Origin: Mustelus asterias
Lineage: Eukaryota
DNA length: 64,000 bases
Assembly: GCF_964213995.1 (NCBI RefSeq)
Contig: NC_135801.1
Span: 26,660,001 to 26,724,000 of the forward strand
Direction of reading: 5' to 3'
In this document: positions 27,513 to 55,499 of the stretch, piece after piece
How the letters are laid out: each line of letters begins with the position of its first letter
Position numbering within the stretch: the stretch's first letter is position 1
Position numbers and translations under genes: made by a program
Notes under the pieces: model-generated
Databases searched by the model: none
The model's input: only the letters and a program-made list of their open reading frames with translations
Told to the model about the DNA's origin: nothing

Positions 27513-28247
27513 CCATACAGGTGAATATGGCTGTATCTGTAGTACCCCCGTCTAGAAATTCCTGACAATTTCAAGTAATTGCCAACCATGTTTACATAAT
27601 GCAATATTTGATAATCATATCAATATTTAACACAAAAACAATAATTTTCATTGCTTACTGTGGTATTTTTGGTTTAGTCAGTATACCCTCTTCTGTACAT
27701 CCCTCCAATCACAACAAATTATTGCGATAATTTTGACACACAAACAATGGTCTCCTAAACAAAACAAAAAACTGTGGGTGCTGGAAAGCTGGGGCAATAT
27801 TTTCCAGCCGCATGCGCGCCAAGACTGGAAATTCCCCCCGAAATCAACAGACCTTTAATAGTCTGCTATATTTTCTACAATTCCCATGTGAAACAGTGCC
27901 GGCCAGATCGCAAGAGGCGAGAATCCAGGCCCAAACCTGATCTTTCCGCTCTCTCCCTATCTTACCAGCTCACCATACTGATCGACCAGCGCAGTGAGCC
28001 GGTAAGATCGCACCCAGAATCTTGTGTAAATAACTACCCGCACACTACCTGTCTCGTAGATGAAAATCCAACCCTAAGTATGCAAGTACATGCTGACAGT
28101 TAGGATTCCCACCTGCTGCCAGTGTATACAGTACTGGGAGATCATAGACAACATAAATGTGATTTCCCAACAGGTACTAGTGATGGATGATGCTCTCTGT
28201 CACCAACCCATACTCACAAAATTATCTCTTCCTGCAGCAAACCTTTA

Positions 28248-28283
28248 CTTCTCGGCCTTTTGGCTAAGATCAAGTGTTGTATC
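28248..28283 (+). pseudogene. RNU2: U2 snRNA 5' fragment
   Basis: CTTCTCGGCCTTTTGGCTAAGATCAAGTGTTGTATC vs U2 CTTCTCGGCCTTTTGGCTAAGATCAAGTGTAGTATC. No Sm site or 3' domain, so not a functional gene. Confidence 0.9.
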
Positions 28284-28557
28284 AACATGCTGTGCTTGGT
28301 TGAAGTCATTAGGTTACATTTTAGCTTCATTTGAAGCAATTTTTAAAAGCGGCATCTCGGCCTTTTGGCTAAGATGCAAATGAGATCAAGCCTTGGAGGA
28401 GGAGCTATGCCTACTCCAATCAGCTTGGATCATGTCGATCAAGCCCAAGACAGAAGGTGAGAGCCCTGTCTTGTCAGCTTGGATCCGGAATGTCTCAACT
28501 TGTTGAGGCTCTGAATTGGACTTGATTTGATTGAATTGGAATAAAAACAAAAAAAAA
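28248..28557 (+). mobile_element. U2 snRNA-headed retroposed element (SINEU/Keno-like)
   Basis: U2 nt 5-40 at 28248-28283 (one mismatch), U2 nt 7-27 at 28355-28375, AATAAA and A tail 28540-28557, TSD AAACCTTTACTT (28239-28250, 28555-28566). Confidence 0.8.
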
Positions 28558-28942
28558 CCTTTACTTACTCATCAATGTGAAAAAGATTACAGGAAATGTT
28601 TGGAATATTTTAGAACTGGCCCTTGCATATCACTGCTTTTACAGTAATGTTTAGAATAGCAAATATAATCTATCAGAATTTTATATCTTTGTCAGATATT
28701 CAGCTCTTACTATTGAAAATCTCACCTTACCCTTTGAGCCTTCTGGTACCTCTTCCTCCATACAGACTCTCATACCAATTTTCACAGGCACTCCCCACCA
28801 TTCTACCCCCTTGATCTCAGTCTTACATCGGTCATGATTCCACATCCCATTACCCTATTCTGATCTCCCTTCATCTGTCTTGGAATGGCACTTTCAAACT
28901 CAGCCTTCCTTTCACCCTGAAAGGTCTACAGATGTTGACCTG

Positions 28943-55328: not shown

Positions 55329-55499
55329 GGGGGAAATTTTCCCGTCCCACGTGCCACGGGAATCGTAGTGACCGGCTGGGGGGTGGGGTGGGGGGGGGGG
55401 AAGGGGGGGGGGGGTGGTGGGGGCAGACCATGCAAAGGCCTGTTGACCTCGGGCGGGATTTTCCAGTTTTGGGGCAAACGCGGCGAGAAAATCCCGCCT
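55329..55499. mobile_element. Harbinger-type MITE
   Basis: GGGGGAAATTTTCCCG / CGAGAAAATCCCGCCT, TSD AAT. Confidence 0.7.

Follow-up and report, generated by a model that had tools for sequence, protein, structure and literature searches.

Retroposons headed by a piece of small nuclear RNA (snRNA) were defined as the class SINEU by Kojima in 2015, in a paper whose accessible text places none outside crocodilians and links them to Tx1-Mar and Mariner-N4 (PMC4494074). Because U1 and U2 have no internal promoter, the transcription of SINEU is left unexplained in that text (PMC4494074). U1 heads are known on crocodilian Tx1-Mar. A review of 2017, in the portion that treats these elements, still has SINEU as crocodilian only. 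A further relevant system is Keno, a LINE of the Tx1 clade, which, according to the parts of the reports that concern its target, inserts 37 nt into U2 and has an AP-type endonuclease (PMC6136364, PMC4640811). Within the text available for the articles searched, including PMC5786205, PMC5499810, PMC7245038 and PMC8455134, and with Repbase, Dfam, subscription journals and supplements outside the search, no article reports an snRNA-headed SINE from a cartilaginous fish; the family described here could well be present in an automated repeat library.

Layout and predicted fold of the unit

The locus that we compare with these systems lies in a window of 64,000 nucleotides (the whole stretch of DNA analysed), where a U2-headed retroposon had been predicted between short direct repeats. 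This unit, about 310 bp long, occupies window positions 28239-28566 (contig C1 at ~26.688 Mb) and belongs, as a dispersed copy, to a two-armed SINE of several thousand copies that is made from rearranged U2. Its features are as follows.

28239..28250, + strand: 5' target-site duplication of 12 bp, perfect direct repeat; its last 3 bases overlap the head
28248..28283, + strand: first head, U2 nt 5-40 (35/36, E 3e-15), with a private substitution at 28278
28284..28351, + strand: rest of the left arm, without sense similarity to U2 (z 0.0 vs U2 nt 41-191)
within 28284..28351, + strand: in order, predicted fold-back onto the head, small hairpin, T/A-rich linker (MFE; helix 1)
28352..28375, + strand: second head, U2 nt 4-27 (23/24), start of the right arm
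28381..28435, + strand: first copy of the hairpin module, an internal duplication of the next module (HMM of six old monomers, E 2.6e-07)
28436..28537, + strand: second hairpin module and diverged U2 (same HMM, E 2.8e-14)
about 28466-28535, + strand: equivalent of U2 nt 40 to ~105 (comparison via old monomers)
28492-28509, + strand: stem-loop-IIb-like hairpin within the diverged U2 part
28540..28557, + strand: AATAAA (28540-28545) and A-rich tail, read from the sequence
28555..28566, + strand: 3' target-site duplication, 12 bp, perfect match to the 5' repeat

Heads were aligned to the U2 gene of the same genome. The original prediction had called the pair of 12-bp repeats, the first head as U2 nt 5-40 and the three-base overlap between the two, all of which these alignments reproduce; the second head, called as U2 nt 7-27 at 28355-28375, is exact over that length and extends to nt 4-27 from 28352. 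Reading the second head as U2 upstream flank with a deletion was dropped, one substitution in U2 nt 4-27 being simpler. The start of the first head at nt 5 holds for the window copy, but the family head begins at U2 nt 1, and the window copy is without the first bases. The reported change in the branch-point-pairing hexamer is real (28278) but private, being found in 1/91 aligned copies, and is not a family trait. AATAAA and the A-rich tail are present as predicted, although AATAAA in this place is typical only of the unit's own subfamily and most others end otherwise.

An Rfam scan of the unit returned U2 alone, at 47.5 bits against a gathering threshold of 46, and T-runs are present inside both heads and the linker. 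The weak Rfam matches near the unit, mir-2329 among them, fall outside it; the mir-2329 match is spurious and stems from a repeat at window 27786-28040 with a 48-bp palindrome (27960-28007), a repeat that recurs in part at window 55423-55492.

The predicted fold of the unit surpasses those of 200/200 shuffles (z -3.75). The ~70 nt between the heads, which had been called unrelated sequence, have no sense match to U2 (z 0), but their first part, directly after the head, is predicted to pair with U2 nt about 25-36 of the head; the left arm would fold back over the branch-point-pairing region of U2. This helix (helix 1) is paired in 95.8% of cells across aligned copies, and among 30 copies picked to span the subfamilies the stems are paired in 97.5% of cells while the loops vary. 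In the 30 copies chosen across subfamilies, 2/60 base pairs have changes on both sides and covariation does not rise above that of shuffles (36/500 and 16/500), so covariation was rejected as proof of a selected structure.

A dispersed family and its older monomers

That the unit might be a one-off U2 chimera with a single-copy body is ruled out by its copies in the genome. Of 1,971 candidates, the 40 that were scored were full-length in every case (40/40), at 96-100% and on 20 contigs, and an 18-mer of the body has 2,978 exact matches genome-wide, the reversed control having 0. A 23-mer of the head has 3,357 exact matches, again with 0 for its reversed control. Thirty consecutive U2-head loci on C1 comprised 24 two-armed copies, 5 old monomers and 1 unrelated locus, and the body 18-mer was carried by only 3/29 lineage loci in this sample; the two counts thus overlap little and suggest a lower bound of roughly 6,000 copies. 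A motif of the old monomer gave 2,973 matches with at most one mismatch (counted as matches, the loci themselves unread), and one of the window subfamily gave 340 exact matches. The 135,653 candidates of an Rfam U2 search of the genome give a first, rough impression and should not be taken for a count of copies; family copies occurred in only 1 of 20 random 10-kb stretches.

Many dispersed copies with differing target duplications had been named as supportive of a SINE family, and this is the pattern found: direct repeats of 8-23 bp flank 36/72 full-length copies, compared with 25/352 control pairings, while an exact target duplication is absent in 36/72. The head-body junction is fixed within a subfamily, and many subfamilies with different junctions and loops coexist. 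For the window subfamily, 38 aligned copies differ by a mean of 1.5% from the column majority (the window copy by 2.0%), 30/38 having been picked for closeness to the window copy and the other 8 ranging from 1.7 to 3.4%. We consider the family young, or recently active. At least half of the sampled words were present in 15 public sequencing runs (9 studies; 7 coded organisms plus unlabelled ones), one of which is maybe the source sample.

Tandem copies are common (4/30, 9/30 and 2/30 loci in three samples). At L106, L080/L130 and L250, tandem joins occur without duplication of flanking DNA, one tail running into the next copy's U2 nt ~16 or 31-32, which suggests insertion into the head of an existing copy. 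A family copy at L068:977-1300 has its head inverted relative to the body, as in twin priming. L116, a U2 5' piece followed by unrelated DNA, is likely an ordinary tailless U2 retrocopy.

The older copies bear on where the body came from. Six old monomers compared with U2 nt 36-191 reach z 4.1-12.4 (500 dinucleotide shuffles); the best of them aligns through stem-loop IIb, the Sm site and stem-loop III, and the old monomer resembles U2 to about nt 150-180, Sm-site region included. An HMM of the six matches U2 nt 44-179 (E 3e-11), and since it matches both 28436-28537 and 28381-28435, the hairpin module has been duplicated. The window body is similar to three old monomers (z 7.6-9.0), whereas its direct match to U2 is weak (z 1.6 for 28376-28550; z 3.5 for 28455-28550, the last 96 bases). 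By these alignments, the 3' half of the body is diverged U2, clearly so via the older copies and weakly when compared directly, which corrects the original label of a non-U2 body.

Eight old monomers are 82% alike on average, and they are therefore older than the two-armed copies. Intermediates with a duplicated module and a tail resembling the last Keno bases are found at L065, L067 and L075, and L075 has a short left arm consisting of U2 nt 1-46. From these structures we infer an order that starts from a diverged U2 monomer of nearly full length carrying an inverted-repeat insert. This monomer would have lost its 3' domain, after which the hairpin module would have been duplicated, a second U2 head gained and the left arm lengthened. 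With the old U2-like monomer and the intermediates in the same genome, an origin independent of SINEU is likely.

A Keno-type LINE and family copies in U2 genes

On C24, an 8,035-bp tandem unit consists of an intact U2 gene and a LINE joined by its tail to U2 nt 38-191. This LINE (L051 2086-7733) is accompanied by a duplication of U2 nt 38-58 and bears a 5' head of its own, U2 nt 5-35. Its Pfam domains are Exo_endo_phos (E 3e-15), an RVT_1 fragment (E 3e-06, below cut-off) and zf-RVT, with zf-CCHC in ORF1; a search for ORF1 homologs gave no match among 1,189 candidates. A Tx1/Keno-like LINE had been proposed as the motor, and the C24 LINE is inserted before U2 nt 38, matching the Keno junction as given in the pertinent part of PMC6136364; judged by junction and domains, it appears to be of Keno type. 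A LINE copy on C21 is near intact, with ORFs of 365 and 1,135 aa. The 8,035-bp unit is repeated ~15 times in tandem at C24:44.815-44.94 Mb (L051), and the Keno ORF2 examined in it is split by a high-copy 350-bp insert. At L053:3638-3717, a short U1-like 5' piece (Rfam weak, E 3.2) precedes the U2 head of a decayed Keno-like element that adjoins a U2 gene.

Keno-like 3' ends are dispersed as well (1,553 candidates). In a set of 25 non-redundant ones (30 loci fetched of the 1,553, minus the query and 4 duplicates), 5 have a family copy at most 25 bp from an end, an adjacency with a binomial chance p of about 2e-12 if 20,000 random copies are assumed, and in four of the five the same target word is repeated at every junction. 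The dispersed sites of the family and of Keno have no likeness to the U2 target above background (8/80 vs 46/673, p 0.18), and the 83 3' flanks compared with one another have no target in common beyond family copies and two pairs of common repeats.

A comparison of the last ~100 nt with Tx1/Keno 3' UTRs had been suggested; for the window subfamily no long tail in common with the Keno 3' end was found, only a 19-nt A-rich match (E 0.1). The idea that the element is a deleted Keno or an R2-type SIDE was rejected, as BLAST against the Keno unit returned only the U2 head and the 19-nt A-rich match. The family element is non-coding and its match to Keno is limited to the U2 head and this short A-rich end; it would be a passenger and not a deleted Keno.

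Copies that are preceded by U2 upstream sequence and followed by the rest of U2 on the 3' side, likewise anticipated as support, were found in a C24 gene and among matches to a second U2 type. Exact junctions between an A-tail and U2 nt 38 number 33, of which 15 lie in one Keno tandem array, 17 others were read and 1 was left unfetched; upstream of the 17 we find a two-armed copy in 7, an old monomer in 1, a family-like tail in 1 and a Keno 3' end in 8. At C24:43.06 Mb, where an array of type-A genes ends, one gene is made up of upstream sequence, a family copy from +1, duplicated target, truncated Keno, duplicated target, a family copy and U2 nt 38-191. The family follows 1/30 type-A promoters read (58 found). 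At C24:43.02-43.05 Mb (L232-L234, L261), 7/30 type-A U2 genes read are 16 nt longer, and in the 4 aligned genes the insert repeats U2 nt about 23-38, adjoining the Keno site; it is possibly what an aborted insertion left behind, multiplied as the array turned over.

The second U2 type (B) has 21 differences, a 448-bp unit, a spacer of ~260 bp and a different upstream sequence, and it lies at C21:28.045-28.082 Mb (L253-L256), where most units carry Keno and four are intact. Its upstream motif has 17 matches, followed by the family in 8, Keno in 5 and intact U2 in 4. One of the 8 family-followed matches belongs to the C21 array; most others are dispersed units. Those on C14, C1, C2, C6 and C7 have outer direct repeats of about 9-18 bp, between which lie array spacer, U2 pieces and family copies, one to three per unit. 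A unit on C12 also combines outer direct repeats, U2-array spacer or U2 pieces, and family copies; for a unit on C8, no outer direct repeat was found. Their outer repeats and array spacer mark the dispersed units as retrocopies of RNA read through family-bearing U2 units, which constitutes DNA evidence of germ-line transcription of such units; several of the 8 matches, being retrocopies of array RNA, are therefore not independent sources. The C2 unit, with 153 bp of type-B upstream DNA and a terminal copy 95% like the window's subfamily, could possibly have arisen by sequential insertion instead.

Traces of U2 genes are found at further copies: 7 bases of type-A upstream DNA lie within a clean 16-bp duplication at L167, U2 nt 33-53 and 38-58 flank a family copy at L201, and extra U2 5' pieces precede L165, L166, L236 and L238. 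The U2 arrays proper of this assembly hold three family copies (one on C21, two on C24), all of other subfamilies and one of them internally deleted. For the window subfamily, no copy directly behind a U2 promoter was found, and only 1 copy is followed by U2 nt 38 onward. Turnover of U2 arrays is rapid, and an assembly may collapse them; sources could escape notice in this way, which does not count as evidence for them. In three samples not chosen for U2 context, 34/75 copies reaching the head start at U2 +1, and in none of these 34 do four bases agree exactly with the two upstream flanks that were compared; most copies thus look like products of RNA starting at +1.

Proposed cycle, its alternatives and class assignment

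We think it likely, on genomic sequence throughout, that the source loci are U2 genes hit at the Keno site and that the motor is a Keno-related ORF2p. One U2 gene does contain a family copy whose tail runs into U2 nt 38 onward and whose head continues without a seam from the upstream sequence and +1. Such a head, equal to the sequence just 5' of the target, would anneal there at insertion, and the copy would inherit the U2 promoter. RNA made by RNA polymerase II would begin at U2 +1 or, as the DNA supports, read in from an upstream array unit; Pol III transcription is unlikely because of the internal T-runs, an argument taken from PMC4494074. Reverse transcription of the A-tailed RNA may then be carried out in trans by a Keno-family ORF2p; most new copies would land at unrelated sites, often next to a family or Keno copy already in place, and occasionally one would enter another U2 gene, which would renew the sources. 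The original prediction was of an element transcribed from a U2 promoter and mobilised by a Tx1/Keno-like LINE: the family, its U2 origin, its residence at the Keno junction, the sharing of sites and the retroposed array RNA are seen, and from them we infer transcription and mobilisation in trans. We are slightly inclined to a wider reading, in which U2 gave rise to this lineage separately from crocodilian SINEU. Since the head equals the DNA immediately 5' of the Keno cut, every insertion into a U2 gene would create a seamless source under the U2 promoter, a form of homing by which the element restores its promoter; a less stringent Keno activity would distribute copies by the thousand, and the steps from near-full-length monomer to two-armed element would still be present in this genome.

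The dispersed copies could instead be the sources, read through from host or LINE promoters, with the U2-resident copies as dead-end by-products of Keno's target preference. In-array copies are few and no source of the window subfamily behind a U2 promoter was found, tandem copies and those right behind Keno 3' ends could be co-transcribed, and flanking transcription is what PMC4494074, where it addresses the matter, proposes for crocodilian SINEU. Read-through of this kind is nevertheless unlikely: it leads one to expect shared non-U2 5' extensions, which were sought by eye at ~100 junctions, but the start is at U2 +1 in 34/75 copies, and such extensions as were found consist of U2 upstream sequence or array spacer. 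The extra U2 5' pieces before L165, L166, L236 and L238 raise the further thought that every insertion acquires a new head when the reverse transcriptase switches template to a free U2 snRNA; the products would be chimeric retrocopies whose +1 start says nothing about a promoter, and the relevant passages of PMC4494074 document snRNA jumps for SINEU-2, such jumps being described also for R2. Against this stand the head-body junction, fixed and inherited within a subfamily, the arm after the head, whose complementarity to it means that both evolve as a unit, and the U2 upstream DNA in L167, L236, L238 and L250, for which mature U2 RNA is impossible as a source, and we hold such jumping to be very improbable as the general origin of the heads.

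The smallest chance goes to a variant-U2 RNA gene, maybe functional, that stands apart and is driven by an snRNA promoter of its own; the dispersed copies would be its retrocopies. The U2 likeness of the old monomer as far as nt 150-180, including the Sm-site region, would suit such a gene, as would stems paired in 97.5% of cells beside variable loops. The many coexisting subfamilies fit many selfish sources better than one gene, however, no compensatory signal rises above shuffles, and every promoter-linked copy found uses the upstream DNA of an ordinary U2 gene.

The element falls within SINEU as that class is defined. It has a U2-derived 5' head (Rfam; 34/75 start at U2 nt 1), is about 310 bp long and thus under 500 bp, and has a 3' poly(A) and duplications in part of its copies (36/72); fixed junctions mark a family with shared structure as opposed to independent chimeras. 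The two heads and the pieces before L165, L166, L236 and L238 are recurrent snRNA 5' additions, and insertion sites are shared with a putative Tx1-type LINE, which would mobilise the family. The host is probably a shark or ray and not a crocodilian, by the indirect sign that the best vertebrate-named matches of a CR1 RT in the window are proteins of Mobula, Hypanus, Scyliorhinus and Pristis, which rank above those of turtles and birds. The element has neither the 7SL, tRNA or 5S head and internal Pol III promoter of a classical SINE1/2/3 nor the make-up of an R2-type SIDE from its partner LINE's 5' and 3' ends.

In the description of SINEU-1/-2/-3 given by PMC4494074, we recognise the U2 head, the length below 500 bp, the poly(A), the internal oligo-T and the repeated snRNA 5' additions, together with tandem insertions under a common target duplication, the presence of duplications at some copies but not at others, and a Tx1-type partner with an snRNA head; SINEU-3, too, is mostly rearranged U2. 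In contrast to SINEU so described, the host is likely an elasmobranch, the family is without a U1 part, its partner targets U2 genes and not Mariner-N4, and family copies lie within U2 genes behind U2 upstream sequence, an arrangement that the text of PMC4494074 does not report. The element would stand apart from SINEU-1/-2/-3 by host, target and source loci, as those are described.

With Keno, as presented in parts of PMC4494074, PMC4640811 and PMC6136364, it shares the junction 37 nt into U2, and the local Keno-type LINE is also U2-headed (nt 5-35); unlike Keno, it is non-coding, and most copies of both elements are dispersed in this genome. The nearest functional parallel is offered by the R2 SIDEs of Drosophila, which PMC3414825, in the portion on them, describes as non-autonomous, lying in the RNA gene that a site-specific LINE uses as its target, and dependent on that gene's transcription. 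Those SIDEs are R2/R1 internal deletions with a ribozyme in 28S rDNA, whereas our element is the target gene itself, spread genome-wide. The proposed monomer-to-two-armed history resembles that of Alu from 7SL, where, in the outline of PMC4494074, a structural RNA gene became a monomer by internal change (FAM, FLAM, FRAM) and then two arms with an A/T-rich linker; Alu differs in having an internal Pol III promoter and using L1, U2 being without an internal promoter. Tailless or chimeric U2 retrocopies, as PMC4494074 portrays them, also hold a U2 5' part between target duplications, but they are one-off events, whereas thousands of family copies share one inherited body.

For annotation, thousands of copies can be mistaken for U2 genes, the window copy itself exceeding the Rfam U2 threshold, and the double head of each copy raises the number of U2 genes counted in annotations of sharks and rays. 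The named loci in which the element replaces the U2 transcript behind U2 upstream sequence make the question of SINEU transcription testable; if true, borrowing of the U2 promoter would explain how promoter-less elements are transcribed. The family would be a second origin of the snRNA-headed SINE class, outside crocodilians and recently active, in which the target gene of a site-specific LINE would have turned into a passenger of the same LINE.
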